From assembly GCA_007126995.1 (NCBI GenBank), contig SLAD01000341.1, positions 1 through 30,447 on the forward strand: 30,447 bases of DNA, in the 5' to 3' direction. The DNA comes from Kiritimatiellia bacterium (GTDB lineage: Bacteria; Verrucomicrobiota; Kiritimatiellia; SLAD01). The position numbers were made by a program, and so were the translations under genes. Below the pieces are notes generated by a model. It was not told the DNA's origin. It ran no database searches and saw nothing but the letters and a program-made list of their open reading frames with translations. Position 1 is the first letter of the stretch; the number at the start of each line of letters is the position of its first letter. Positions 1,828 through 18,402 of the stretch are shown piece after piece.

Positions 1828-2640
1828 TCAGCGCATTTCTTGCCCGCCGGTAACGTTGATGGCCTGCCCGGTCATGTACGACGCCGTGTCGGAGGCCAGG
1901 AACAGTACGACGTTGCCGATATCCTCGTAGGTGCAGCCGCGTTGCAGCGGGACTTGTTTGATATAATGTTGCCGCACATCTTCAATCGATTGGGCGCCGG
2001 GCACTTTGCCGGCTTTGAAATACTGCACGAAGAGGCCCTGATCAGGATCGGTCCATAACGGCGATTCCAGCAAGTTGCCGGGACAGACCGCATTCACGCG
2101 CACGCCGTACGGAGCCATTTCGAGCGCGGCGCTTTGCACCAGACCGATTCCGCCAAACTTGCTCGCGGCATACGCGGAGTTCGCCGCACTACCCTTTTTC
2201 CCCGACTTGGAATTGATCTGAATAATGGCACCCGATCGCTGCTCCTTCATTTGGCGGCAGGCATGCTTGAGGGTCAAAAACTGGCCGAACAAGTTCACGT
2301 TCATGACGGCGCGCCATTTTTCGGCGTCGGCGGTATCAATCGGTTCGGCGATCAAAATGGCGGCGTTGGCAACGACCAGATCGACGCGCCCGAATTCTTG
2401 CACGGTTTCGGCGAATAGCCGTTCGACGTCCGCCTCCTTCGTCACGTCCCCGGCCACGGCCAGTGTGGATTGTCCCGTCTTCTTCGCCACATCGGCGACC
2501 GTCGCCTGCACAGCGTCACTTTTCAAATCGAATACGGAGACGGCATACCCTTCACGGGCCAACCGTTCCGTCAGCGCAGCACCCAATCCCTGTGCGCCGC
2601 CGGTGACAATGGCCACTTTATCTTTTCCTGCATCGGTCAT
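1828..2640 (-). CDS. srlD: Sorbitol(hexitol)-6-phosphate dehydrogenase-like short-chain dehydrogenase
   Basis: Start at ATG 2640 by ATGA overlap with the upstream stop (270 aa). TGGAQGLG, NSKSGKKGS, catalytic YAASK, CPGNLL and C-terminal YMTGQAINVTGGQEM match SrlD/SorD. True substrate is unproven. Confidence 0.8.
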   Translation of the reverse strand: MTDAGKDKVAIVTGGAQGLGAALTERLAREGYAVSVFDLKSDAVQATVADVAKKTGQSTLAVAGDVTKEADVERLFAETVQEFGRVDLVVANAAILIAEPIDTADAEKWRAVMNVNLFGQFLTLKHACRQMKEQRSGAIIQINSKSGKKGSAANSAYAASKFGGIGLVQSAALEMAPYGVRVNAVCPGNLLESPLWTDPDQGLFVQYFKAGKVPGAQSIEDVRQHYIKQVPLQRGCTYEDIGNVVLFLASDTASYMTGQAINVTGGQEMR

Positions 2641-4202
2641 GGCTGTTCTCCAAATGACTTCAACAACGCCCGCTCCGCCTCTTTCGTCCATACGCCGTCT
2701 TGTAAGTGTTGTGCCACGTCCGGGTAGGCTTCGGCGAGTTCTGTCAGGCGCGTTAGTTTCAAGCCGCGACAAGCCGGGTAGACCAGTATTTTGCCAGGGA
2801 TCGTCTGATGCTCCACGGCACGGATGCCGTCCACCGCACCGTCGAGACCGCTGATCGCCGCCACAGAGAGATTCGTGTCGAGCTGACGCTGAGTGACTTT
2901 CGAGAGCACGATCTTCATGTCCTCGATCGTGCTACCGCTGGTGCCAATGAAGTAGGCTTGGCGCTCGATATAGCTATCGAGATCAAGCGGATGCGTCACC
3001 TCCGCCGGGATGCCGGCGAAGATGTTGATGATGGCTTTGGGCGCCGCCTGCTCCACCGCTTGGGCCACGAGGCCGGGCACGGGCACCATCAGGGCGATGA
3101 CGTTGAACGGTCCGGGCGGAGCGTCGGTTTTCGCATTGTACCCGCGGTAGCCGACGCCATTGGCGGCGGCCAAGGGCTCGGCGAGCTTACTCAACTGGGC
3201 CAGTCGCTCGTCGCTCATGTCGCCGGCGTACACCGTGATGCCCTGCACGCCTTGGCACAGGTTGCGGATGACGTGCATCGTGCCCATCGGGCCGGCGGCG
3301 CCTACCACGTTGATGGCGTCGCCCGCGCGGATTTCGCCGTTTTCCGGGATGGCGGCATAGCCTGCATCCGGATCGGAACCGGTGGTCCCGGTGATGCGCA
3401 CGCCGCCGTAATGGATCCGGCCAACCGGCGTGACAACCGGACGCCCGAACGTCTCGCCGCGCTGCACGATATTGATGAGCGCATGCTTGGCCAGCTTCGG
3501 GAAGACCGCCTCCAGCAGATCGGCGTCAGCGCCAAGAAAGATGACATCGTCGAGCGACTCCGCCGGGATCCGGTCCAGCGCTGAGCGATCATATGCGGAT
3601 GAATCCACAGTCAGCACGCAGCCACCCTCGCGAGGCGCCCGCCGTTCGCGAACCACGTACGAGTCTTCGACGCAGGCCCACGGTTCCACCAAGGCGATGG
3701 CCGAGGCGGAAAGATCCTCGGCGGCCGGGATCAGCATCGACTCGCCGTTCGGTGAAGTGATTACGCGCTCATCCATCAGCACATACTCCTGCAGTCCGCC
3801 CTCGAAATTATATCCGAAGGCCGCGTTGGAGTTGGCTGTCCTCAACCAGCGATAATCCGTTTGCACAAGGCGCCGGTCGCCGGGTTGCACGCCGTGTACT
3901 TGATCGCCGACGGCCACCACGCGCACAACCGTTTCATGACCGGGCACCGCCGGTTTCTGGTCCGGCACATAGCTGGGGATTTCGTTTAGGGTGGCCTGAT
4001 CCAGGATCGTGACCACGGGGGATTTGCGCACATGTGCGTCAAACTGCTTCAGCAGTTTGAGGTCCGAAAAGCAGAGGCCGGTGACTTCGATCCGGGCAAG
4101 AATTTGATGCGGTCCGGGCTGCGGAATAGTCTTCTGTTCATTCAGTTCGAGCGTGTCCGGGCCGGTTAGTTGTACCGCGCGTTGGTGTGAAGGTACCGTC
4201 AT
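2637..4202 (-). CDS. Zn-dependent medium-chain dehydrogenase, L-sorbose-1-phosphate reductase (SorE)-like, with internal extra domain
   Basis: Start at ATG 4202 by ATGA overlap (521 aa). GLCFSD and PGHE catalytic-Zn ligands, FGYNFEGGLQEY, EPWACV and VGAAGPMG. No four-Cys structural-Zn lobe. Confidence 0.8.
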   Translation of the reverse strand: MTVPSHQRAVQLTGPDTLELNEQKTIPQPGPHQILARIEVTGLCFSDLKLLKQFDAHVRKSPVVTILDQATLNEIPSYVPDQKPAVPGHETVVRVVAVGDQVHGVQPGDRRLVQTDYRWLRTANSNAAFGYNFEGGLQEYVLMDERVITSPNGESMLIPAAEDLSASAIALVEPWACVEDSYVVRERRAPREGGCVLTVDSSAYDRSALDRIPAESLDDVIFLGADADLLEAVFPKLAKHALINIVQRGETFGRPVVTPVGRIHYGGVRITGTTGSDPDAGYAAIPENGEIRAGDAINVVGAAGPMGTMHVIRNLCQGVQGITVYAGDMSDERLAQLSKLAEPLAAANGVGYRGYNAKTDAPPGPFNVIALMVPVPGLVAQAVEQAAPKAIINIFAGIPAEVTHPLDLDSYIERQAYFIGTSGSTIEDMKIVLSKVTQRQLDTNLSVAAISGLDGAVDGIRAVEHQTIPGKILVYPACRGLKLTRLTELAEAYPDVAQHLQDGVWTKEAERALLKSFGEQP

Positions 4203-5473
4203 GATCGTGCCCTCGATAAGGCAATTGGTTTGCCGGGTGCAGTGGTGCGGCCGATTTCCTCGAAATAGGCGTTTCGTTCCCGGCGATCCGGGAAATTGTG
4301 GCATGCCCATTCGCTCATGTAGCCCCAGCCGTATTGACGCTGCATTAACGTGTGCGCGTACACGATATAGGCGCTCTTCAGAAAGAGGGGCAGATGAGGA
4401 GCAAGCTCCTCCGATGCGAAGTCATCGACGAACCGTTGGCCCGGCGCATTCATCTCTGTGCCCACGAGGACGGGCAGGTCACGGCTTCCGGCGAGCGCGA
4501 TAATGTTCTTCAGGTTCGCGAGTTTCTGGTCCTTCACGCCCGGCGTGAAATTTCGGTCGGGGATAATGTTGATGGCAGACACGCCGGAGGACATCGCTAT
4601 ATCCAACCATTCCTCCATGCGTTGTTCACCCTCCGATTCGCCGTCCAGCCAGGCCAAGGTCGGGATGCCACCGGCGCGCAGGACGAATGCATTCATGGCG
4701 TCCAGGGAGGGAAATGAACGAGCCTCCGGAGCTACGTAACCGACGCCGCCCCGCTTCATCGTGCGCGCTCGTATCCGGTCCAGCAGTCGACTCGCGTCTG
4801 GCAAATCTTCGGCGGACACGTCCTCGCCCAGCTTGTCGCTCCAGAACGCTTGCAAGTCGGACATCGCAGCGAATTGGTCTGCCGCGCGGCGCGCATAGGC
4901 GCGGGAAATGTGACGCTCCGTCGCGTTTTGCCGCGGCGTCATAGGTAACACATCGTGAACATAATCGATTTCGACCGGGGACAGGTAGGCGTTAACGCGT
5001 TCGATCAATTCCCGGTTGCGCTGGCCCGCCCTGCGCAGCAGCTCCTGCAAAAAGTGTTCCTCATCGGGGCCAATGGATCGCTGGGGCATGCCGACCCCCA
5101 TATGATACGCGATGCCCGGCTCGCCCGGTGAATTGATGACGGAGCCGGCCAAGCGCGGCACGTGAACGCGCGATTCGATGCCCGCACAGACGCGCAGCTT
5201 CAGTAGCCGCCCCGCCTCCAGAAATTCCTCCAGCCCGTCCAGCACGTCAAAGTCAACAAGGCCAGCCACCTGCAACCCTTCGCAGCGAGCGCGCCAAGCA
5301 ATCGCGGCAGGCGAATAATCCTCCGCATTAAACGAGTAGAAGGTGTGCAGGTGTAGATTGACCGCATCCCGGTCTGGATATTCGTCATCAACGATGCGAC
5401 GGGACAACTCGGCGAGCGCCTCCCGTCTCACCTCGGGATCGAAACTATTCAGTTGTGCAATCCACTCACTCAT
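4199..5473 (-). CDS. PHP-domain (metal-binding barrel) protein of unknown function
   Basis: Likely start ATG 5473 (424 aa); the longer track ORF runs antisense into deoR. HLHTFYS (HxH), GLVDFD, GIES and AYHMG motifs. Short HEAT-like N-terminal helix pair. Coupled to the two dehydrogenases by ATGA overlaps. Confidence 0.75.
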   Translation of the reverse strand: MSEWIAQLNSFDPEVRREALAELSRRIVDDEYPDRDAVNLHLHTFYSFNAEDYSPAAIAWRARCEGLQVAGLVDFDVLDGLEEFLEAGRLLKLRVCAGIESRVHVPRLAGSVINSPGEPGIAYHMGVGMPQRSIGPDEEHFLQELLRRAGQRNRELIERVNAYLSPVEIDYVHDVLPMTPRQNATERHISRAYARRAADQFAAMSDLQAFWSDKLGEDVSAEDLPDASRLLDRIRARTMKRGGVGYVAPEARSFPSLDAMNAFVLRAGGIPTLAWLDGESEGEQRMEEWLDIAMSSGVSAINIIPDRNFTPGVKDQKLANLKNIIALAGSRDLPVLVGTEMNAPGQRFVDDFASEELAPHLPLFLKSAYIVYAHTLMQRQYGWGYMSEWACHNFPDRRERNAYFEEIGRTTAPGKPIALSRARS

Positions 5474-5593
5474 AATGATGAAGGACGATAATATACCAAC
5501 CGAACAAATGCAATCGGAAATAAACAAAGAATATTTTAGTTGCTTTGATGCCCGAATTGTGGGAGCGTAGGTCGAATGCGGGGGAGGCAAACT
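5474..5593. promoter_or_regulatory. AT-rich divergent control region between PHP operon and deoR-kinase operon
   Basis: 120-bp intergenic gap, clearly more AT-rich than the flanking genes. AACAAA occurs at 5503 and 5523 (20-bp spacing). SD GGGAGG precedes ATG 5594. Confidence 0.6.
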
Positions 5594-6406
5594 ATGTTGG
5601 CATTGCAGAGACAGCGCGAAATCTTGAGGCTGATCGAACAGGAGGGCGCGGTGCGGGTAGCGAACCTCGCGCGTCGGTTTAAGGTCACCGAGGAAACCAT
5701 TCGTCGCGATCTTACCACGCTCGAGAATACCGGACGTGTGACGCGCAGTCACGGCGGCGCTGTGCTCTCGCTATCGTCGCGGCTTGAGGTGCCGCACCAG
5801 CAGCGCGAGGTACTCAACAAGGCGGAGAAGATCCGGATTGCCAACGAGGCCGTGCAGCGCGTTAGCCGGGGCGACGCCCTGCTCTTGGATGCAAGCTCGT
5901 CCGCGCTGTTTCTGGCCCAGCAATTGCCCGATATGCCATTGACCGTGCTCACCAACTCCGTCGCCGTTGTGAACACCCTGGCAGATTACAAACGCATCAA
6001 GCTGATCGGGGTGGGCGGCACGTTTGCGCCGATGACGATGTCATTCGTCGGACCCTCCGCCCTCAACAGCTTGAAGGAGTATCATGTCGACAAGCTCTTC
6101 TTTTCGTGCCGCGGACTCGATGTGGGACGGGGATTGAGCGATTCCAGCGAAGCCACCGCCCAGGTCAAGCAACAGATGTTACAGATTGCGGATCAGCGCA
6201 TTTTGTTGGCGGACCACAGCAAGTTCGGCGTGCGCGCGCTGGCGGTGATCGCCGATCTAAGCGCGATCACGGAACTGATCACGGATGATCGCGCGGATGC
6301 GCAGCAGTGCGAAATCATACAAAAGCTGGGCGTGCCGGTAACGCAGACGCAAACCGTCGCCCCCGACCCGTTGCCGGACGCCGCGCCGGATTATGCGAAC
6401 ACCTGA
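5594..6406 (+). CDS. DeoR/GlpR-family transcriptional regulator (copy 1)
   Basis: Start ATG 5594 with SD (270 aa). HTH VTEETIRRDL, SHGGA, LDASSS, VLTNS and LADHSKFG. Confidence 0.95.
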   Translation: MLALQRQREILRLIEQEGAVRVANLARRFKVTEETIRRDLTTLENTGRVTRSHGGAVLSLSSRLEVPHQQREVLNKAEKIRIANEAVQRVSRGDALLLDASSSALFLAQQLPDMPLTVLTNSVAVVNTLADYKRIKLIGVGGTFAPMTMSFVGPSALNSLKEYHVDKLFFSCRGLDVGRGLSDSSEATAQVKQQMLQIADQRILLADHSKFGVRALAVIADLSAITELITDDRADAQQCEIIQKLGVPVTQTQTVAPDPLPDAAPDYANT

Positions 6407-6433
6407 GAGACGAACTTCGAAAGGAGCGTTCTG

Positions 6434-7927
6434 ATGCCGGACCGCAAGAAAAAGAATTATGTCGCCTTGGATTTGGGCGCGGGGAGTGGGCGCGCGATAC
6501 TGGGCTCGTTTGACGGAGAGCGCTTGAGTCTGGAAGAGGCGCATCGCTTTCCCAATGATCCCGTATCGTTGCCCGACGGGTTGCATTGGGATGTCTTAAG
6601 GCTGTTCTCGGACATGAAGCAGGGGCTGATCAAGGCAGCGGGCATGGCGGACGGACCGATTGACGGCATCGCCGTGGATACGTGGGGGGTTGATTACGCA
6701 TTGCTCGACGACGAAGGGCGTCTTTTGGGCAATCCGCATCATTATCGCGACGCGCGCACGGACGGCATGCTGGAGGAGGCGTTCCGGCGCATGCCGCGCG
6801 AGGAGATATTCGCGTCCACGGGGCTGCAGTTCATGCAGATCAATACCGCCTTTCAACTCTTGTCCCAAGTGTTGCAGCAGGACCCTGCGCTGAAGACGGC
6901 AGAGCGATTACTGATGACGCCCGATTTGTTTCACTATTGGCTGACGGGGCGACAGGTCGCGGAGCGCACGATTGCCAGCACGAGTCAGTGCTACAACCCC
7001 GCACAAGACGAGTGGGCGCAGGATGTGATCGAAAAGCTCGGGCTTCCTCTCAAGATTTTCCCTGAGATCGTGTCGCCGGGCACCGTATTGGGGCCGCTAC
7101 GCGCGGACGTGGTCAGCGAGACGGGGCTCGCCGATACCCCCGTGATTGCGGTGGGTTGTCACGACACCGCCAGCGCGGTGGCGGCCGTGCCGTTGGCGGG
7201 CGCGGGCGAAGCGTATTTGAGTTCCGGCACGTGGTCGCTGCTTGGCGTCGAGGTGCCCGCACCGGTGATTGATGAGAACAGTCTGAAGTACAACTTTACG
7301 AATGAGGCCGGCGTCGCCGACACGATTCGCTTGCTGAAAAACATCACTGGCTTGTGGCTGACACAAGAATTACGGCGCGTGTGGAATGCGGAAGGTGAGT
7401 CTCTCAGCTTTGAGGACTTGGCGGAACTGGCGCAATCGGCAGAGCCGTTTGCTCATTTCATTGATCCCGACGACCCCGTCTTCCTGGCGCCGGGCGACAT
7501 GGTCCCGCGCATCGCGGAGTTTTGTCGCCGAACCGGACAGCCGGAGCCGACCACGCGCGGCGCGATTTTGCGCACCGCCTACGAGAGTTTGGCTTTCAAG
7601 TATCGCTGGGTGTTGGATCTACTGGAGAAACTGACCGGCGAAACCCTGCACACGATTCACGTGGTGGGCGGAGGCAGCCGCAATGCCGCCCTGAATCCGT
7701 GGACAGCGTCCGCGACCGGACGCACGGTGCGGATTGGCCCCGGCGAAGCGACGGCAACGGGGAACGTTTTGCTCCAGATGATTGCCACGGGCCAGCTTGC
7801 GTCCGTCGAGGAAGGCCGGGAACTCGTGCGGGCCTCCTTCCCTTCCGAGACCTTTGAGCCACAGGACACGCAGGTTTGGGATGAAGCATACGGTCGATTC
7901 TGCGCCTGCGTGGGGTTGAGTCTGTGA
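6434..7927 (+). CDS. rhaB: Rhamnulokinase-family (FGGY) ketose 1-kinase; may act on L-fuculose given linked fucI
   Basis: 497 aa with DLGAGSGR, IAVDTWGVDY, YRDART, HDTASA, YLSSGTWSL, TNEAG, LKNITGLW and VVGGGSRN. Confidence 0.9.
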   Translation: MPDRKKKNYVALDLGAGSGRAILGSFDGERLSLEEAHRFPNDPVSLPDGLHWDVLRLFSDMKQGLIKAAGMADGPIDGIAVDTWGVDYALLDDEGRLLGNPHHYRDARTDGMLEEAFRRMPREEIFASTGLQFMQINTAFQLLSQVLQQDPALKTAERLLMTPDLFHYWLTGRQVAERTIASTSQCYNPAQDEWAQDVIEKLGLPLKIFPEIVSPGTVLGPLRADVVSETGLADTPVIAVGCHDTASAVAAVPLAGAGEAYLSSGTWSLLGVEVPAPVIDENSLKYNFTNEAGVADTIRLLKNITGLWLTQELRRVWNAEGESLSFEDLAELAQSAEPFAHFIDPDDPVFLAPGDMVPRIAEFCRRTGQPEPTTRGAILRTAYESLAFKYRWVLDLLEKLTGETLHTIHVVGGGSRNAALNPWTASATGRTVRIGPGEATATGNVLLQMIATGQLASVEEGRELVRASFPSETFEPQDTQVWDEAYGRFCACVGLSL

Positions 7928-8565
7928 AGGCGTACATCTTCGACATGGACGGCGTCTTGTGTGATTCGGAAGCCATTCTCGCTGAAGCGGCGTGCCGAGT
8001 GTTTCAGGAACATCACGGGGTTCAGCCGTCGCCCGCCGATTTCTTGCCCTTTGTTGGGGCCGGGCCCGACCGTTACCTGCAGGGCGTAGCGGAGCAGCAC
8101 CGTGTCGAGGCCGTATTGCCCCGGGACAAGGAAGCCATGTATCGCCTCTATGCCGAGCTCGTTCCGGGTCAGCTCCAGCCACTGAATGGCGTGATCGAGT
8201 TTGTACGTGCGGCGCACGCGCAGGGCATTCGGGTGGCGGTGGCCACCAGCGCCGATCCGTTCAAGGTTAAGCTCAATCTGGAGGAGATTGATCTGGATGC
8301 GAAGCTATTGTCGACGATGGTGACAGGCGCGGACGTCACGCGCAAGAAACCGGATCCTGCGATCTTTCTTGAAGCTGCGGCACGAATGGATGTGACTCCG
8401 ACCGACTGTCTGGTTTTCGAGGATGCCGTCAACGGTGTACAGGCGGCGAAGGCGGCGGGGATGCGCTGCATCGGCATCACATCGCTGTTCGACGCCGACA
8501 CCCTGCGCGCGGCCGGCGCAGATGAGACGTGGCCGGACTTCAGCGGGGCCACCCCCGCAGTTTAG
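7924..8565 (+). CDS. HAD-superfamily hydrolase (beta-PGM/hexitol-phosphatase-like)
   Basis: GTG start overlaps the kinase stop (GTGA). FDMDGV (motif I), VATS, KKPDP and FEDAVNGVQAA. Confidence 0.9.
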   Translation: MKAYIFDMDGVLCDSEAILAEAACRVFQEHHGVQPSPADFLPFVGAGPDRYLQGVAEQHRVEAVLPRDKEAMYRLYAELVPGQLQPLNGVIEFVRAAHAQGIRVAVATSADPFKVKLNLEEIDLDAKLLSTMVTGADVTRKKPDPAIFLEAAARMDVTPTDCLVFEDAVNGVQAAKAAGMRCIGITSLFDADTLRAAGADETWPDFSGATPAV

Positions 8566-8631
8566 CAAATCTCCCGACCAGATCATTTAACGCCCGTCGC
8601 GCCCCCTACAGGCAATTCCTGCCAATGGAAG

Positions 8632-8660
8632 TTGACAATTTCATGTCACACGTGTGACAT
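8632..8660 (+). promoter_or_regulatory. Consensus -35 TTGACA followed by perfect 18-bp palindrome ATGTCACACGTGTGACAT (copy 1, putative operator)
   Basis: TTGACA at 8632-8637. The palindrome at 8643-8660 covers the spacer and expected -10 position, 24 bp upstream of the PaaX-like ATG. Confidence 0.7.
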
Positions 8661-8684
8661 TAATTGGGTATTCACGGACCAAGC

Positions 8685-9470
8685 ATGAATGATCAAACGA
8701 ATGAATTCCTGCACTATCTTGCTTGGAACACAGACGGTTCCAATCTCGGGCCGTTTCGCTTGTTGACTGATTCATTTGAGTCATGGGCCTATCCGGGGGA
8801 CCTCATGCGACAGGCCGAGCGATTGGCGCAGCGCCAACTCATTGAGCGCGATCCCAAGCATCCCCGCAAGCCTCGCTATCGGCTTACGCACGAGGGATTG
8901 CTCCACACCCTCGGTGGACATTATCCACCCGACCGGTGGGCGCGCAAGTGGGATGGTCAATGGCGCATGGTTGTATTCGATATATCGAAGGGACACAACA
9001 CGCTGCGGCAGGCTCTCTTGCGTTACCTGCGGCAGCGTGGCTTCGGCTGTCTGCAGGACAGCGTCTGGATAACGCCCGACCCGATGGACGAAGAGCGCCG
9101 ATTGCTTCGCCGCGAAATGACGAATGTGGAGCAATTGATCCTGCTCAACACCCAGCCCTGTGCAGGCGAGACGGATCAGCAATTGGTCGCCGGCGCCTGG
9201 AAGTTTAGTCGCATCCATACCCTCTATTCGAAGTACCTGGCCATCCTGAAGCGATGTCCGCAAACGCCTCTCACTACTCGGACCGCAGCGCGACGACTCA
9301 AGGAATGGGCCACAACGGAGCGCTGGGCTTGGCTGGAAGTCATCGAACTCGACCCTCTACTACCGGCGCCCTTGCTGCCACGCGGCTATATGGGCAAACG
9401 CGTATGGAATGAGCGCGCACGCGTGCTGTCGAAAGCGGCTCGCCTATTGACTACGTTTACGCAGGCCTGA
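8685..9470 (+). CDS. PaaX-family-like protein (short winged-helix, Cas2-like central domain, PaaX C-terminal domain)
   Basis: ATG 8685 preferred (261 aa). WDGQWRMVVFDI, LRQRGFGCLQDSVWITP, VAGAWKF and DPLLPAPLLPRGY match PaaX central and C-terminal signatures. No paa genes are in the window. Confidence 0.85.
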   Translation: MNDQTNEFLHYLAWNTDGSNLGPFRLLTDSFESWAYPGDLMRQAERLAQRQLIERDPKHPRKPRYRLTHEGLLHTLGGHYPPDRWARKWDGQWRMVVFDISKGHNTLRQALLRYLRQRGFGCLQDSVWITPDPMDEERRLLRREMTNVEQLILLNTQPCAGETDQQLVAGAWKFSRIHTLYSKYLAILKRCPQTPLTTRTAARRLKEWATTERWAWLEVIELDPLLPAPLLPRGYMGKRVWNERARVLSKAARLLTTFTQA

Positions 9471-9531
9471 ATTCTGTTTCGCCCCTCGAGCAGCTCTCCC
9501 ACCGCGCATCGCGTCCGCAAACACACACTCA

Positions 9532-9567
9532 GCCAAGTAGATGTCACACGTGTGACATCTACTTGGC
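9532..9567. repeat. 36-bp perfect palindrome containing copy 2 of the 18-bp palindrome
   Basis: GCCAAGTAG-ATGTCACACGTGTGACAT-CTACTTGGC equals its own reverse complement. The core at 9541-9558 is identical to 8643-8660. Confidence 0.98.
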
Positions 9568-9631
9568 CGACCAATGACATTTGGTTTATACATCAAGCTC
9601 GATCTCCGCCCCCGTTGCTTTGTGACACATT

Positions 9632-9680
9632 ATGATTGACTTTGATCATATTTAACCTAAACTCGATCATGTTCAATCAT
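9632..9680 (+). promoter_or_regulatory. Putative promoter (TTGACT-16-TAAACT) with phased ATCAT repeats, candidate DeoR operator
   Basis: TTGACT 9636-9641 and TAAACT 9658-9663. ATCAT at 9645, 9666 and 9676, plus inverted ATGAT at 9632. SD GAGAGG precedes ATG 9693. Confidence 0.55.
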
Positions 9681-9692
9681 TGAGAGGATCTT

Positions 9693-10466
9693 ATGATTTC
9701 ATCTAGAGAACTTGCGCCGGAGCGGCAAGGACGCGTTGCCACCTACATTCGGGATCGGGGAGCAGCCCGCATTGAGGAGCTGGTGAAGGTATTTGATGTC
9801 GCACCCGCAACCGTGCGACGCGACCTTGCGACACTGGAGGAGCAGGGCCGTATCCGGCGGGTGCATGGCGGCGCAGTGGCAACAGAGTCGCGCCTGGATG
9901 AACCACTCTTCGACGACAAGACCTCGATTGCCGCTCGCGAGAAACGCCGGATCGCAGAAAAGGCCCTGACCCTGATTGAATCGGGCGATACGGTCTATCT
10001 CGACGGCGGCAGCACCGTCCTCGAACTGGCCCGGCTCCTCACCAACCGCTCAGACGTGACGGTGGTCACCAACTCGCTGCGCGCCGCCATTGAACTCTCC
10101 GGTCGCGGGCCTCGCCTCATTTTCGTCGGCGGCGAGTTGCGCCGACTGAGCCAAACCACAGTCGGCACCCTGACACGCTTGCTGCTGGATCAAATCCACG
10201 TGGACAAGGCCTTCATGGGCACAATGGGGATCTCCCTGCCCGAGGGCATTACAACCACCGACCCGAACGAGGCCTACACCAAGGAACTGGTGCTGTCGCG
10301 GGCCGCACAGTCCATCCTGCTGGCTGACAGCAGCAAGGCCGGGAAAGTGACCTTCGCCCGGTCAGGCGACATACGACAAATCAATACCATCATCACGGAC
10401 AAGGATTTTCCCGCACACCTAGCCAAGACGCTCAAGAAGATGGGCACGGAATTGCTGCGGGTCTGA
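9693..10466 (+). CDS. DeoR/GlpR-family transcriptional regulator (copy 2)
   Basis: 257 aa with VAPATVRRDL, VHGGA, LDGGSTV, VVTNS and LADSSKAG. Confidence 0.95.
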   Translation: MISSRELAPERQGRVATYIRDRGAARIEELVKVFDVAPATVRRDLATLEEQGRIRRVHGGAVATESRLDEPLFDDKTSIAAREKRRIAEKALTLIESGDTVYLDGGSTVLELARLLTNRSDVTVVTNSLRAAIELSGRGPRLIFVGGELRRLSQTTVGTLTRLLLDQIHVDKAFMGTMGISLPEGITTTDPNEAYTKELVLSRAAQSILLADSSKAGKVTFARSGDIRQINTIITDKDFPAHLAKTLKKMGTELLRV

Positions 10467-10479
10467 AAGGATTACAAGC

Positions 10480-11817
10480 ATGGCCACACCAATCATTATG
10501 CCGCGCCAAGGACAGTCCGTTGAAAGCTGTATCCTGATTGAGTGGGCGGTGAAACCGGGCGACACCGTGAAATCCGGCGATATCGTCGCCAGCATTGAAA
10601 CGGACAAAGCGACCTTCGATGTGGAATCACCCGCCGATGGCACCATCATTGAGTTGTTCTTCGAGGAGGGCGCGGATGTGCCGGTGCTGACGCACATTGC
10701 TGCGGTGGGCGAACCGGGCGAAGACGTGTCCGCGCTACGACCAGACAATGCGGCGCAACAACCTGAATTCGCCGCTCAGAAGACAGAAACCGAAACCCAG
10801 CGCACGGAGCGCCAAGACCAACAAGAGACCGCGCAACCGGCAACCCCCACCCCACAACCTGCAACCCATGCCGCCTCTCCGCGTGCACGCAATCACGCCG
10901 AGCGCGCAGGCGTACAGATCCAAGGGCTGGTCGGCAGCGGGCCGCGCGGGCGCGTGATCGAACGCGATGTGATCGCAGCGACTTCCGAGCGTGCCCGCAT
11001 GAGTCCGGCCGCCAAAGCGGCGGCTCGGGACGGCCTCACAGCCCCACCATCCGGCAGCGGCCCCGGTGGCATGGTATTGACAGCCGACCTACGAGCGGCC
11101 TCCGCTGCTGAGGCGCCACGCGAGATTCCGGTCAAAGGTGTGCGCAAGATCATCGCCGAACGCATGATGAAGTCGCTCACCTCTACGGCACAATTGACGC
11201 TGAACCGCTCGTTCGACGCAACCGCGATCCAAGCCTTCCGCGCCAAGGTCAAGCAGCACGGCGAACACTTCGGCCTGAGCGCCCTGACCATCAACGATCT
11301 CATCGTCTTCGCAACGGTCCGCACACTGCTGCGTCACCCTGAATTGAATGCCCATTTCCTCGGCGATCACATCCTGCAATTCCCGTCCGTGAACATGGGC
11401 ATTGCCGTCGACACCCCGCGCGGATTGATGGTGCCGGTGGTGCAAAGCGCGGAGCAAATGAATGTCACCGAACTCGCCCGCGCAATCCGCCCGCTGGCGA
11501 AAGCTTGTCAGGAAGGCCATATCGATCCCGATCGACTCACTGGCGGCACCTTTACGATCACCAACCTCGGCGCACTCGGCATTGAAAGCTTCACACCCGT
11601 ACTGAATGCGCCGGAGGTAGCGATCCTCGGTGTCGGAGGACTCTACCTCAAGCCCATCAAGGGCGCGAATGGCGTCGAACATGTCGAGGCGATGAACTTG
11701 AGCCTGACCATCGATCATCAAGCTGTGGACGGCGCACCCGGCGCACGTTTCCTGCAAGATCTGGCGAACGCTCTGGAAAATATCGAACTGCTCTTAAGCG
11801 AAAGCGTGAACGCATGA
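10480..11817 (+). CDS. Dihydrolipoamide acyltransferase (E2) of a 2-oxoacid/acetoin dehydrogenase-type complex
   Basis: 445 aa. One lipoyl domain (IETDKA), P/A/T/Q-rich linker, subunit-binding repeats, GGTFTITNLG and catalytic TIDHQAVDG. Confidence 0.95.
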   Translation: MATPIIMPRQGQSVESCILIEWAVKPGDTVKSGDIVASIETDKATFDVESPADGTIIELFFEEGADVPVLTHIAAVGEPGEDVSALRPDNAAQQPEFAAQKTETETQRTERQDQQETAQPATPTPQPATHAASPRARNHAERAGVQIQGLVGSGPRGRVIERDVIAATSERARMSPAAKAAARDGLTAPPSGSGPGGMVLTADLRAASAAEAPREIPVKGVRKIIAERMMKSLTSTAQLTLNRSFDATAIQAFRAKVKQHGEHFGLSALTINDLIVFATVRTLLRHPELNAHFLGDHILQFPSVNMGIAVDTPRGLMVPVVQSAEQMNVTELARAIRPLAKACQEGHIDPDRLTGGTFTITNLGALGIESFTPVLNAPEVAILGVGGLYLKPIKGANGVEHVEAMNLSLTIDHQAVDGAPGARFLQDLANALENIELLLSESVNA

Positions 11818-13160
11818 AGGAATACGATTTCATTGTCATCGGCGGCGGCCCCGCCGGCTACATTGCGGCCGAACGAGCAGCCGAGCAAGGCCTGAAGACA
11901 CTGCTCGCCGAGCACCGCCACCTGGGTGGCGTATGCCTGAATGAAGGCTGCATTCCCTCTAAAACGCTGCTGCATAGCGCAAAGCTTTATCATTATGCCA
12001 CCCATTCCGCCGCCTACGGCGTATCGGCGGAGAATGTCAGCTTCGATTTCGGTCCCGTACAGGAACGCAAGAACCGGATCATCCAAACCATTCGCCAAGG
12101 CGTCGGCGGGCTGATGAAGAAGTACAAGGTGGACGTGATCAATGATCGCGCACAACTTTTGCCCGAAGACAGCGTGCAGATCGGTGACGACACTTTCAAA
12201 GCCAAACAGGTACTGATCGCCACGGGCTCGTCCCCCGCGCGCCCGCCGATCAAGGGCACTGATCTGCCGGGTGTGCTGGATTCGACCGGCATTCTGGCGT
12301 GCGACGCTGCACCGAAAAGCCTGGTCATCATCGGCGGCGGGATCATCGGTTGTGAATTTGCCTGCTTCTTTGGATCAATCGGCGTGCCCGTAACGGTAGT
12401 CGAAATGCTCCCGGAAATCTGTCCGTCGGTGGACCCGGGAATCGCCCGCCTGCTGCGAAAGGAACTGGAAAAGAAGAATGTCACGTTCCATCTCAATGCG
12501 CGCGTGGAGGAAATCACGGAGCAGGACGTGCGATTCGCGGTTAACGGCGAGATGAAAACGGTCGCACGCGATCTCGTCCTGCTTTCGACGGGTCGGACAC
12601 CCAACGTGGATGGACTCGGCCTGGAACATCGCCGCGTGGACTTTAGCCAGCGCGGCATTCGAGTAGACGATCGCTGCGCAACCAATGTGCCGGGCGTATG
12701 GGCCGCCGGCGATGTGACCGGACGCGTATGGCTCGCGCACGCAGCATCGCGAATGGGCGAAGTCGTCGTGAACAACATTACCGGACGACCGGACCACATG
12801 CGTTATCACGCTGTGCCCGGCGTGATCTATACCAACCCCGAAGTGGCCACCGTCGGCTGGACCGCCGACCAGGCGCGTGAGCAAGGATGGCCGGTGCGTA
12901 CGGCGAAGGTGCCGCTGACCATCAACGGACGTTATCTGGCCGAACACGAGGACGAGCGCGGCATCGCGAAGGTGGTGCTGCACGCCGAAACCAATGCGCT
13001 GCTGGGTGTACACATGATCGGCGCGGCCTGCTCGGAGATGATTTTCGGCGCGGCCACCATGATCGAGATGGAGGTGCGATCGCAGGAAATCGCCGATCTG
13101 GTGTTCCCCCACCCGACCGTATCGGAAGTTATACGCGATGCCGTACTGGCCGCGAAATGA
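11814..13160 (+). CDS. lpdA: Dihydrolipoamide dehydrogenase (E3)
   Basis: 448 aa with GGGPAG, redox GGVCLNEGCIPSK, GGGIIG, WAAGDV and C-terminal HPTVSE. ATGA overlap with E2. Confidence 0.95.
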   Translation: MKEYDFIVIGGGPAGYIAAERAAEQGLKTLLAEHRHLGGVCLNEGCIPSKTLLHSAKLYHYATHSAAYGVSAENVSFDFGPVQERKNRIIQTIRQGVGGLMKKYKVDVINDRAQLLPEDSVQIGDDTFKAKQVLIATGSSPARPPIKGTDLPGVLDSTGILACDAAPKSLVIIGGGIIGCEFACFFGSIGVPVTVVEMLPEICPSVDPGIARLLRKELEKKNVTFHLNARVEEITEQDVRFAVNGEMKTVARDLVLLSTGRTPNVDGLGLEHRRVDFSQRGIRVDDRCATNVPGVWAAGDVTGRVWLAHAASRMGEVVVNNITGRPDHMRYHAVPGVIYTNPEVATVGWTADQAREQGWPVRTAKVPLTINGRYLAEHEDERGIAKVVLHAETNALLGVHMIGAACSEMIFGAATMIEMEVRSQEIADLVFPHPTVSEVIRDAVLAAK

Positions 13161-13221
13161 TCGAACCCTGTTTGAAACAGATTATTGAGACCTTTAGACA
13201 GAAAGTGAGATGAACTGAGTC

Positions 13222-15672
<2,451 letters not shown>

Positions 15673-15713
15673 CCGCAGAACTCGATCAACCCCAAACCAA
15701 GAGGAGAACTGAC

Positions 15714-17480
15714 ATGAGCACATATCCAACCGTAGGCATTCGCCCCACGATTGACGGTCGTCTGGGCGGCGTCCGCGAATCGCTCGAAGCTCAAACCATG
15801 AAACTGGCGGGCGCGGCGGCAAAACTGATCGAAGGCACGCTGCGCCATCCCGATGGATCGCCGGTGCGATGCGTCATTGCAGAAACGTGCATCGGGGGCG
15901 TCGCAGAAGCGGCAGCCTGCGCGGACTTGTTCCGGCGCGAGAATGTCGGCGTCTCGCTCACCGTCACCCCGTGCTGGTGTTACGGGTCCGAAACGATGGA
16001 CATGGATCCCTTGATCCCCAAAGCCGTCTGGGGCTTTAACGGGACGGAGCGCCCGGGTGCCGTGTATCTAGCGGCAGTACTGGCAGGCCATGCGCAAAAG
16101 GGCTTTCCCGCTTTCGGCATTTACGGCCGCGACGTGCAGGACGCCGGCGACGCCAAAGTCCCTGCCGACGTGCGCGACAAGATTTTGCGCTTCGTGCGGG
16201 CCGGTTTGGCTGCGGCCACCATGCGGGGCCGCGCATATCTCGCCATGGGCGGCACGTCCATGGGCATCGCGGGATCGATCGTGGATCAGAACTTCTTTGA
16301 GGAGTATCTCGGCATGCGGGTCGAGTCGATCGACATGAGCGAGTTCATCCGACGAATCGAACGCGAAATTTATGATCCCGACGAATATGCACACGCCCTG
16401 AAATGGGTGAAGAAGAACTGCAAGGAGGGCAAGGACTACAACGAACCATCCAAGAAGCGCGCCCGCAAGGCACTGGATCGCGAGTGGGAAATCAGCGTGA
16501 AAATGGCGCTGATCGCGCGCGACCTGATGGTCGGCAATCCCAAGCTGGCGGAAATGGGCTATGGCGAAGAGGCGCATGGGCATCACGCCATCGCGTCGGG
16601 CTTCCAAGGCCAACGCCAATGGACCGATCACATGCCGAACGGGGACTTCATGGAGGCCATCCTCAACACGTCCTTCGACTGGAACGGCATACGCGCGCCC
16701 TACATCGTCGCGACGGAAAACGATGCGCTCAATGGGGCGTCGATGCTCTTCAACTATTTGCTGACCAACACCGCGCAAATTTTCGCGGACGTGCGGACCT
16801 ATTGGAGCCCGGCAGCCGTGAAAAAGGCGACCGGCTACAAGGTCACCGGTCGGGCCGGCGGCGGCTTCTTGCACCTGATCAATTCCGGCCCCGCGACGCT
16901 GGACGGCACGGGTCGTCAGCAGGTTAAAGGCAAGCCTGCCATGAAACCTTTCTGGGACATCACACAAAAGGAAGCCCAAGCGTGCTTGGATGCGACGACG
17001 TGGCATCCGTCCATGACGGAGTATTTCCCCGGTGGTGGCTGGTCCACGCGCTACGCGACGAAGGGCGGCATGCCGGTTACGATGTGCCGCATCAACCAAT
17101 TCAAGGGCTTGGGACCGGCGCTCCAGATCGCCGAAGGCTGGACGATCGATCTGCCCGCGAAAGTGCACAAGCAGCTCGACGAGCGCACCAACCCGACCTG
17201 GCCCACGACTTGGTTTGTGCCGAACCTTACCAAGTCGGGCGTGTTCCGTGATGTCTACTCCGTCATGAACGCCTGGGGCGCCAATCACGGCGCCATCAGC
17301 TACGGCCACATCGGCGGCGACCTGATTGCCTTGGCGGCGCTACTCCGGATCCCGGTGTACATGCATAACGTCGATGAGGAGGAGGTCTTCCGGCCCAACA
17401 TGTGGAATGGGTTCGGCACGGCGGATCGCGAGAGCGCCGATTTCCGCGCCTGCGCTACGCTGGGTCCGCTATACGGCTGA
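15714..17480 (+). CDS. fucI: L-fucose isomerase (L-fucose/D-arabinose isomerase)
   Basis: 588 aa, [34 protein letters not shown], and metal-ligand motifs [13 protein letters not shown] and WGANHG. Confidence 0.97.
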
Positions 17481-17499
17481 TCACATCACGGAGGGGCAG

Positions 17500-18402
17500 A
17501 TGAAGAAGCCATTACCAACGCACGAAACGACATCATACGGCGGCTGGCCGAATTGCGTCAGGATTTCCGACGGGAAGACGGAGGCCATTGTCACGACCGA
17601 CGTGGGTCCCCGGATTATCCGGTTCGCCCCGGTCGGCGGTGAAAATCAGCTTAAGGAGTTCCCGGAACAGCTCGGCCGCACCGGCGGCAAGGAATGGCGA
17701 ATCTATGGCGGCCACCGCCTGTGGGTGGCCCCGGAGGACGCGGACCGTTCGTATGTGCCGGACAACAAACCAGTGGAATGGTCCTGGCGCAACCCAACAC
17801 TGACACTAAAACAAGCGGCAGACGTGCTCTATGGCTTGGCCAAGGAAATGCGCCTGCGCTGGTTGGCGGATGGATCGTTGGAAGTCAAACATCGCTTGAT
17901 TAACCGGTCGCGGCGCAAAGTGGAATTAGCGCCTTGGGCCCTGACCGTCATGGCCCCGGGCGGCGAGGCCGTCATCCCGCAGGAACCCTACGCGCCGCAC
18001 CCCGAAGCGCTGGTCCCCGTTCGCCCGCTCGTCCTATGGGCGTATTCCAACATGAGCGATCCGCGCTGGACCTGGGGCGATCGCGAAATCCGGCTGCGAC
18101 AGGACCGGCGGCGCCGGGCCCCGCTCAAAGTCGGCCTGTTCAGTCGGCAAGGCTGGATGGCCTACGTGCGCGATGGCTATGCCTTCATCAAGAAACATCC
18201 CGTCGTTACCGGCAAACCGCACCCGGATTACGGCTGCAACGTGCAAACGTTTACCAATCAAGACATGCTTGAACTGGAAACGCTCGGCCCCTTGGTCACG
18301 TTAAAGCCGGGTGCCCGCGCGGAACTTATCGAACAATGGCAACTACACAAGGTGCGCGGAAATCCCGGACTGAAACAACTCGCTCGACTGGCCACAACCT
18401 GA
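17500..18402 (+). CDS. Uncharacterised galactose-mutarotase-like beta-sandwich protein (DUF4380-like)
   Basis: ATG 17500 behind SD GGAGG (300 aa). VGPRIIRF, YGGHRLWVAPE, WAYSNMSDPRW and MLELETLGP. Family assignment is from memory. Confidence 0.65.
   Translation: MKKPLPTHETTSYGGWPNCVRISDGKTEAIVTTDVGPRIIRFAPVGGENQLKEFPEQLGRTGGKEWRIYGGHRLWVAPEDADRSYVPDNKPVEWSWRNPTLTLKQAADVLYGLAKEMRLRWLADGSLEVKHRLINRSRRKVELAPWALTVMAPGGEAVIPQEPYAPHPEALVPVRPLVLWAYSNMSDPRWTWGDREIRLRQDRRRRAPLKVGLFSRQGWMAYVRDGYAFIKKHPVVTGKPHPDYGCNVQTFTNQDMLELETLGPLVTLKPGARAELIEQWQLHKVRGNPGLKQLARLATT

Follow-up and report, generated by a model that had tools for sequence, protein, structure and literature searches.

In a 30,447-nt stretch of Kiritimatiellia DNA (contig SLAD01000341.1; analyzed over its whole length and called the window below), positions 1828 to 18402 hold a gene island in which a conserved, unpublished module combines deoxyhexose-pathway genes with those of a thiamine/lipoamide complex of the acetoin or pyruvate dehydrogenase (PDH) type. 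The module is probably an undescribed way from the methyl end of fucose or rhamnose to acetyl-CoA, and there is a substantial chance that it includes a new class of reaction. We tentatively view the island as a catabolic unit of two arms that serves the 6-deoxyhexoses L-fucose and L-rhamnose and, with similar reserve, favor an aldolase-dependent branch from lactaldehyde to acetyl-CoA over the acyloin cleavage of an oxidized phosphosugar. The stretch is present in two soda-lake DNA runs and originates from a soda-lake metagenome, its source genome being a metagenome-assembled genome of class Kiritimatiellia that is 71.5% complete. An earlier note, drawn from the letters of this DNA, had described a fucose island here and had proposed an aldolase-independent pathway for it. 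An open reading frame (ORF) listing with Pfam and NCBIfam scans located every gene that it named, at the following positions:

1828-2640, minus strand: SrlD-like short-chain dehydrogenase/reductase (SDR), 270 aa; NF009050, 313.6 bits against a cut-off of 307
2637-4202, minus strand: long Zn-dependent medium-chain dehydrogenase/reductase (MDR), 521 aa, about 130 aa of them an insertion; ADH_N is the sole Pfam match
4199-5473, minus strand: PHP-family metal phosphoesterase-like protein, 424 aa, heading the PHP-MDR-SDR operon; weak PHP match
5576-6406, plus strand: DeoR1 regulator, transcribed away from PHP-MDR-SDR and preceding the kinase; HTH_DeoR and DeoRC
6434-7927, plus strand: RhaB-like FGGY ketose kinase; TIGR02627, 451.7 bits against a cut-off of 527.95
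7924-8565, plus strand: HAD-IA phosphatase; HAD_2 and hexitol phosphatase-like matches
8664-9470, plus strand: PaaX-like protein; PaaX_M
9693-10466, plus strand: DeoR2 regulator, heading the operon of the complex; HTH_DeoR and DeoRC
10480-11817, plus strand: E2 acyltransferase; Biotin_lipoyl, E3_binding and 2-oxoacid_dh
11814-13160, plus strand: E3 dihydrolipoyl dehydrogenase; TIGR01350, 510 bits against a cut-off of 408.8
13222-15672, plus strand: fused E1 alpha-beta, the thiamine-diphosphate component, 816 aa; E1_dh, Transket_pyr and Transketolase_C
15714-17480, plus strand: L-fucose isomerase FucI; NF008220, 1048 bits against a cut-off of 775
17500-18402, plus strand: mutarotase-like protein resembling the TTE1925 family, last gene of the operon; NF052227, 274 bits against a cut-off of 550

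ATGA start/stop overlaps at 4199-4202 (PHP/MDR) and 2637-2640 (MDR/SDR) couple PHP to MDR and MDR to SDR, which suggests a fixed stoichiometry or a physical complex of the three proteins. In the other arm, FucI, which also exceeds the TIGR01089 cut-off (1006 bits against 850) and has all three FucI Pfam domains, begins 41 nt after E1; a terminator scan found no plus-strand terminator-like site between 15672 and 15714, and the two genes are apparently co-transcribed. The mutarotase-like gene that follows has a start codon and ribosome-binding site readable in the sequence, and homologues at 55-56% identity are neighbors of PfkB and the complex in four other places (L005, L014, L059 and G117). 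The arms are separated, at 8632-9630, by the PaaX-like gene and a long palindrome flagged by the terminator scan (9529-9570). No homologue of the HAD phosphatase was found in about 100 related loci, nor of the PaaX-like gene in related loci; because of this absence both look like lineage-specific insertions, and they were rejected as pathway members. Housekeeping genes (surA, pdxA, rsmA, pss, psd, recO, thiL) make up the rest of the window, and the scans of all 30,447 nt returned no class II aldolase, lactaldehyde enzyme or microcompartment shell gene.

ORFs were clustered from about 80 loci around the fused E1, and further loci were collected from the MDR side. The constant core is DeoR-E2-E3-E1, with PHP, MDR, SDR and an FGGY or PfkB kinase as recurrent partners in Verrucomicrobiota, Planctomycetota and Spirochaetota; the PHP-like partner occurs in 24 loci at 35% identity or more, and in more divergent forms besides. 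This set of genes is found again in dozens of unrelated loci, so that its clustering in the island is not a matter of chance. Victivallales loci read FGGY and DeoR in one direction and PHP-MDR-SDR-E2-E3-E1 in the other, with PHP to E1 in a single operon. Opitutales loci hold, in order, PPK2, PfkB, PHP, a mannitol-1-phosphate dehydrogenase-like gene, DeoR, E2, E3, E1, a small class II aldolase, a 607-aa protein and SDR; an indirect protein-atlas lead, with no alignment, hints that the 607-aa protein is possibly related to MDR. At least five loci have the class II aldolase domain and the SDR ortholog in one fused gene, an arrangement seen in planctomycete-type loci, among which L121 combines FGGY-PHP-MDR with RhaA (L-rhamnose isomerase) and the fusion, and L120 has FGGY-PHP-MDR with both a separate aldolase and the fusion. 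An Armatimonadota operon is composed of MFS, MDR, aldolase-SDR fusion, FGGY and RhaA, and RhaA stands beside MDR and kinase genes in L116 as well as L121. The core DeoR-E2-E3-E1 also often stands alone amid unrelated neighbors, and four of five tested genomes that carry it had no detectable MDR ortholog.

FucI or RhaA stands next to the module in several independent loci. L118 reads AraC, FucI, RhaA-aldolase-FGGY-DeoR1 and then PHP-MDR-SDR-PfkB-DeoR2-E2-E3-E1; its FucI and RhaA belong to the arm that diverges from the module, some 10-13 kb away from the complex, with the aldolase between RhaA and the kinase. The close relative G117 has PHP-MDR-SDR-mutarotase-PfkB-DeoR2-E2-E3-E1 with DeoR1-aldolase-FGGY divergent, and G249 has FucI-FGGY-DeoR-E2-E3-E1-PHP-SDR-MDR followed at a distance by an aldolase. 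Besides the window, G249 and two Spirochaetaceae loci have FucI next to the complex. In another close relative, G138 (95% complete, 50 contigs), separate contigs (L124, L125, L126) carry FucI with an AraC regulator, FGGY-DeoR1 divergent from PHP-MDR-SDR, and DeoR2-E2-E3-E1; its FucI, kinase and whole module are 72-80% identical to those of the window, and no RhaA was found in it. The same-position regulators of the Victivallales loci, G117, G138 and L118 are 45-51% identical to DeoR1, while DeoR2 shares 51-70% identity with the regulator upstream of E2 in most orthologous loci.

The complex is most likely of the acetyl-transferring PDH/acetoin type, as the earlier note had supposed. In NCBIfam, E2 matches PDH E2 models best, at 277-280 bits and in every case below cut-off (276.9 against 445), and E1 scores 224.9 bits against the PDH beta model (cut-off 321) and 187.4 against the alpha model (cut-off 393.85). 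The alpha part of E1 aligns to human PDH E1 alpha across the GGSMH motif and a second motif of ten residues. Since the nearest families of E1 are PDH E1 alpha and beta and its motifs are PDH-like, the complex most likely transfers an acetyl group. The complex nevertheless falls outside the PDH complex as defined by these models, E1 and E2 being below their equivalog cut-offs and other E1 enzymes usually being encoded in the same genome. Of 10 other genomes tested, 7 encode AceE or a split E1 alpha as well as the fused E1, among them the complete genomes G213 (AceE at 1348 bits) and G033, which carry AceE; the fused E1 was the only PDH-like E1 found in G176 and G003. Because another E1 coexists with it in most genomes tested, the complex is an extra one, and housekeeping PDH activity was rejected as its sole role. 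The source genome itself also has genes similar to pyruvate:ferredoxin oxidoreductase (PFOR) and a SucA-like E1.

Orthologs of the fused E1 at 62-85% identity occur in Kiritimatiellia, Opitutales, Victivallales/Lentisphaerae, Planctomycetota, Spirochaetota and Sumerlaeota. A 770-aa fused paralog (L096-L107, e.g. G176:C1:1710744-1713005) is 36-43% identical and has its own E2; E3 was detected beside it in 4 of 12 loci, most loci have a DeoR2-like regulator (46-57% identical to DeoR2), and its loci have no conserved neighbors in common.

The association with rhamnose and fucose isomerases extends from gene neighborhoods to whole genomes. Each count was made in the same 250 Verrucomicrobiota genomes, of which 81 have a fused E1 and 169 do not; the 816-aa form is found in 47, the 770-aa paralog in 34 others, and both together in none. 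RhaA occurs in 75 of the 81 (93%), comprising 41/47 with the 816-aa and 34/34 with the 770-aa form, versus 69 of the 169 others (41%), and a true FucI in 52/81 (64%) versus 57/169 (34%), contrasts that overstate independence because the counted genomes, although spanning many families, are related. RhaA is thus the stronger correlate; FucI was dismissed as a strong genome-level predictor of the complex, its effect being only moderate. Shell genes show the opposite trend (2/81 versus 50/169), and of the 144 genomes with RhaA, 75 have a fused E1 and 24 have shells, with a single genome having both. The MDR in its 550-aa form was found in 17 genomes of eight families, every one of them with a fused E1. 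Together with the Victivallales operon, from which the FGGY gene is divergent, this bears out the co-conservation of the two island arms on which the earlier note depended. Six of the 34 genomes with the 770-aa E1 paralog carry the 550-aa MDR. A FucI-like paralog, scoring about 430-490 bits and so below the FucI cut-off, is almost confined to fused-E1 genomes (G083, G089, G110, G119, G206, G215, G164, G173, G168, G150 and G170): 11 of its 15 full-length copies occur with the 816-aa E1 and three more with the 770-aa form, none of them adjoining the complex.

Among the accessory enzymes, the SDR has Erwinia SrlD, a sorbitol-6-phosphate dehydrogenase (5o3z, 195 bits), as its best solved structure, although it clears the cut-off for that enzyme only narrowly and has no glucitol phosphotransferase system (PTS) in its context. 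It is 65-80% identical to SDRs of module loci and 41-45% to the SDR domain of the aldolase-SDR fusions; itself unfused, it reaches 167.8 bits against the 567.75-bit cut-off of TIGR02632 (RhaEW type) and so lies outside that family. The MDR retains the catalytic Zn ligands of polyol dehydrogenases and an NAD motif (Cys80, His124-Glu125, Glu209 and GAAGPMG, conserved across 16 orthologs); its orthologs in module loci are 48-77% identical, and a protein-atlas model gives the MDR fold plus an extra domain. Of the SorE-like and SrlD-like pair proposed by the earlier note, the SrlD-like half stands; for the other half there are the polyol-type Zn site and the automatic JGI name L-sorbose-1-phosphate reductase on some homologues, but NCBIfam yielded no SorE match, only weak MDR hits, and with no PTS in context the protein falls outside the SorE family.

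The PHP-like protein has six invariant residues across 21 homologues (N39, H41, H43, E100, H188, H374), and its model (pLDDT 92.6) is closest in fold to the bisphosphate phosphatase Cv1693 (2yb1), BAD_1165 and RNase AM, with a Foldseek E of 9e-11 and a TM-score of 0.75, normalized by target length, against 2yb1. Fold and metal ligands place it, as modeled, among the PHP phosphoesterases of the Cv1693/TrpH group. Clusters c21 and c41, considered for rhamnose isomerase, proved to be divergent PHP-like proteins without a Pfam match, 23-30% identical to that of the window, and were rejected for that role. The kinase is predicted to be an FGGY kinase nearest RhaB that falls below both kinase equivalog cut-offs (132 bits against 470.9 for the fuculokinase model TIGR02628), with orthologs in module loci at 47-53% identity. 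As for the aldolases of related loci, the fusion from L084 scores 323 bits against TIGR02632, again below cut-off, and the small module aldolase scores best against 3-oxo-tetronate-4-phosphate decarboxylase (102 bits, below cut-off), its structure and family matches being ambiguous between aldolase, decarboxylase and epimerase.

Beyond the window, contig C296 of the source genome encodes a 271-aa class II aldolase divergent from rhaA, which keeps the Glu / His-x-His / His metal site and resembles the aldolase half of RhaD/RhaEW fusions, and contig C223 carries araA-araD-araB. The kinase of the window is the only RhaB-like FGGY match in the genome and probably serves both isomerases, FucI and RhaA. 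A microcompartment locus on contig C361 (L095:4494-11205) comprises an RpiB-DeoC fusion, two bacterial microcompartment (BMC) shell genes, EutN, an aldehyde dehydrogenase and a phosphopentomutase-like enzyme; as it has the RpiB-DeoC fusion and phosphopentomutase where the fucose/rhamnose type of Planctomycetes and Verrucomicrobia has a class II aldolase, it was rejected as a fucose organelle and assigned to the DeoC/RpiB sugar-phosphate type. A gene of the lipoate/biotin ligase family adjoins it. Contig C317 (L090:2516-5583, minus strand) encodes a 744-aa E1-like protein, split-transketolase-like with a weak E1_dh match, and then a 296-aa PHP protein, a second pairing of a thiamine enzyme with PHP; a 62%-identical homologue lies directly upstream of PHP-MDR-SDR in L003 (L003:1-1589).

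In the pathway that we favor, FucI, with the mutarotase-like protein, and the RhaB-like kinase would convert L-fucose to L-fuculose-1-phosphate, and RhaA, encoded elsewhere in the genome, would yield L-rhamnulose-1-phosphate with the same kinase, the unit being under the putative control of the two DeoR regulators. A class II aldolase, supplied here by the C296 gene beside rhaA and in relatives by the kinase arm or an SDR fusion, would split either ketose-1-phosphate into dihydroxyacetone phosphate (DHAP) and L-lactaldehyde. The PHP phosphoesterase-like protein, the MDR and the SDR are genetically coupled to a dedicated acetyl-transferring complex: SDR and MDR may oxidize lactaldehyde to pyruvate via lactate, or to methylglyoxal, and the complex would turn the three-carbon 2-oxo compound into acetyl-CoA and NADH. 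The module would then be the cytosolic counterpart of the Planctomycetes-Verrucomicrobia microcompartment, disposing of the lactaldehyde half of the sugar. We favor this reading because 1) aldolase genes hold rhaBAD-like positions in the kinase arm; 2) the aldolase-SDR fusions resemble RhaEW; and 3) the module and the microcompartment that handles lactaldehyde are mutually exclusive. The window indeed has no aldolase, lactaldehyde enzyme or microcompartment gene, as the earlier note had observed, but its term aldolase-independent was inferred from the window alone while relatives carry aldolase genes, and is unsupported in general: besides the C296 gene, aldolases are part of the module or neighbor it in G117 (between DeoR1 and the kinase), L118, G249, Opitutales loci (after E1) and the SDR fusions, G138 being the exception. 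The gene-neighborhood analysis that it suggested thus gave a divided answer, the module recurring with FucI or RhaA and kinases as predicted and aldolase genes being present rather than absent, G138 again excepted.

Several points weigh against the lactaldehyde branch. A second complex dedicated to pyruvate would be redundant beside AceE (G213, G033), the split E1 of other genomes and the PFOR-type genes here, and the presence of the fused E1 in all 17 MDR-bearing genomes points to a pathway-specific substrate. The SDR is nearer to sorbitol-6-phosphate dehydrogenase than to the RhaW domain (313.6 versus 167.8 bits), and we know of no Zn-dependent MDR that is a lactate dehydrogenase. The conserved PHP and frequent PfkB kinase suggest phosphorylated intermediates downstream, superfluous for lactaldehyde chemistry, and the relatedness of the counted genomes lessens the force of their contrasts. 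Finally, G138 holds FucI, the kinase and the whole module, yet its 95% complete assembly gave no class II aldolase match (PF00596) even at an E of 0.01.

Many of these points favor a broader form of the earlier idea, somewhat unlikely in our estimation, in which oxidation precedes cleavage. The SrlD-like SDR or the MDR would oxidize C5 of L-fuculose-1-phosphate, L-rhamnulose-1-phosphate or a reduced hexitol-1-phosphate to a methyl-ketone acyloin, which the complex would cleave, as in acetoin breakdown, to acetyl-CoA and an aldehyde phosphate of four carbons; PHP, the second dehydrogenase and a class II aldolase-family protein, acting as an epimerase, deformylase or OtnC-like decarboxylase, would convert the latter to DHAP or erythrose-4-phosphate. 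It shares its stoichiometry with the lactaldehyde branch, a ketose-1-phosphate giving DHAP, acetyl-CoA, one C1 unit and three reducing equivalents. Such an order would account for a complex additional to AceE or split PDH enzymes, for the strict association of MDR with the fused E1 (17/17), for the single PHP-MDR-SDR-E2-E3-E1 operon of Victivallales and for the missing aldolase match in G138. It also agrees with the SDR score above the sorbitol-6-phosphate dehydrogenase cut-off, with the polyol-dehydrogenase Zn site of MDR and with the sub-cut-off decarboxylase match of the small module aldolase (102 bits), and phosphorylated intermediates would suit DeoR regulators and a PHP phosphoesterase; the carbon oxidized by SrlD lies four carbons from the phosphorylated one, which by position would be C5 of the ketose-1-phosphate. 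Against it stand the rhaBAD-like placing of aldolase genes beside the kinase, the resemblance of the fusions to lactate-making RhaEW, the four of five tested DeoR-E2-E3-E1 genomes with no detectable MDR ortholog, the 770-aa paralog loci with no conserved neighbors and a literature search that yielded no intermediate of such a route; to our knowledge, no lipoamide complex acts on a sugar phosphate. The fused-E1 complex would then be the first lipoamide-dependent dehydrogenase complex on a phosphorylated sugar derivative, in a deoxy-sugar route free of lactaldehyde and microcompartments and spread over at least three phyla, a possible but doubtful prospect. RhaEW has been shown by experiment to be an aldolase plus lactaldehyde dehydrogenase, forming DHAP and lactate from rhamnulose-1-phosphate in vitro, and its assay without NAD+ gave neither product (Rodionova et al. 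2013, PMC3870299). This published NAD+ dependence implies that the dehydrogenase step seems to be needed for C-C cleavage, so that an oxidation-first order may be possible in the RhaEW family too.

One version of that order, the exact aldolase-free route of the earlier note, is highly unlikely. Here MDR would reduce L-fuculose-1-phosphate to L-fucitol-1-phosphate, SDR would oxidize this to 1-deoxy-D-tagatose-6-phosphate, and the complex would release acetyl-CoA and D-threose-4-phosphate (or erythrose-4-phosphate); fucitol-1-phosphate, 1-deoxy-tagatose-6-phosphate and threose-4-phosphate are purely conjectural as intermediates. The window does hold FucI, kinase, MDR, SDR and complex with no aldolase, some MDR homologues bear the sorbose-1-phosphate reductase name, and G138, with no class II aldolase match, is the sole genome that fits; by stereochemical working, fuculose-1-phosphate and rhamnulose-1-phosphate would converge on one tetrose phosphate, in line with the joint link to FucI and RhaA. 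However, aldolase-family genes are regular in the module and one is present in the source genome, NCBIfam gave no SorE match for MDR, and D-threose-4-phosphate is not a central metabolite and no epimerase was assigned. The route does employ island core enzymes, as the earlier note had stressed, but leaves the conserved PHP and the frequent PfkB without a role. That there is no pathway link at all, DeoR-E2-E3-E1 being a general pyruvate or acetoin dehydrogenase next to sugar genes and PHP-MDR-SDR serving another polyol phosphate, also seems quite improbable. The core does often stand alone with unrelated neighbors, its E1 motifs are PDH-like, and G176 and G003 have no other PDH-like E1 that was found; yet the recurrent operon fusion with PHP-MDR-SDR, the neighboring FucI, RhaA and kinase genes in unrelated phyla, the constant pairing of MDR with the fused E1, the 93% versus 41% contrast in RhaA and the apparent co-transcription of FucI with E1 in the window all speak for a link.

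Fucose and rhamnose rank among the major sugars of algal fucoidans, plant pectins and mucins, and their breakdown in Verrucomicrobiota and Planctomycetota is currently explained by a microcompartment that contains the toxic lactaldehyde. About one third of the Verrucomicrobiota sampled have a DeoR-controlled fused-E1 complex instead of this microcompartment, and almost never both. If the module is an alternative lower pathway, genome-based predictions of carbon flow from fucoidan and rhamnose, of ATP yield and of propanediol cross-feeding would change, and four large uncharacterized families would gain a function: the fused E1, the 520-550 aa MDR, the 420-450 aa PHP and the SrlD-like SDR. If its substrate is a sugar phosphate, the complex would add a new reaction class to those of 2-oxoacid type.

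Searches of the literature on the module and on the intermediates proposed returned nothing relevant, and the fucoidan and Pontiella papers do not mention the module. In the description of Pontiella, fuculokinase is missing and one strain ferments fucose without propanediol (PMC7356697), observations that are compatible with the module without being evidence for it. The microcompartment attributed to fucose and rhamnose degradation in Planctomycetes and Verrucomicrobia (Erbilgin 2014, as cited in PMC8857213) is found in these phyla too, together with the upstream genes that accompany the module (isomerase, kinase, class II aldolase), and apparently has the same lactaldehyde-handling role; its distribution is complementary to that of the module, which lacks shell proteins and an acylating aldehyde dehydrogenase and would work through a thiamine/lipoamide complex instead. 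The RhaEW-type rhamnose pathway (PMC3870299) likewise has RhaA, an FGGY kinase and a DeoR regulator, several module loci have an aldolase-SDR fusion, and the source genome appears to hold a split version, with the aldolase beside rhaA and the SDR in the window. Unlike RhaEW, the module fusions fall short of the cut-off (323 bits against 568), the SDR is closer to SrlD, and PHP, the long MDR and the lipoamide complex are additional.

Compared with heterotetrameric-E1 PDH complexes, the island complex has the same domain set, the GHS loop motif of human E1 alpha and a bona fide E3 lipoamide dehydrogenase, but its E1 and E2 score below cut-offs, most genomes tested encode another E1 as well, and its distribution tracks RhaA and FucI. 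The acetoin dehydrogenase system (AcoA/AcoB/AcoC/AcoL) is similar in being an extra, pathway-specific thiamine/lipoamide complex beside housekeeping PDH, with an E1 of the PDH/Aco type; butanediol dehydrogenases accompany aco genes much as SDR and MDR stand beside the island complex. It differs in that the island E1 alpha and beta are fused (816 aa), the genes are arranged as E2-E3-E1, DeoR takes the place of AcoR/sigma-54 as regulator, and the setting is one of isomerase, kinase, aldolase and PHP genes. With the enterobacterial SorE/SorD(SrlD) pair the island shares a Zn-dependent MDR translationally coupled to an SrlD-like SDR; its own pair has no PTS, includes a distinct 520-550 aa MDR subfamily with an insertion, and is always preceded by PHP and tied to the lipoamide complex. 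Finally, the island resembles fucPIKUR/fucAO of E. coli in its clear FucI equivalog, ketose kinase and DeoR-family regulator (cf. FucR), but the kinase is RhaB-like rather than FucK, the island contains no FucA equivalog, FucO or AldA, and the downstream half of the pathway is replaced by an uncharacterized module.

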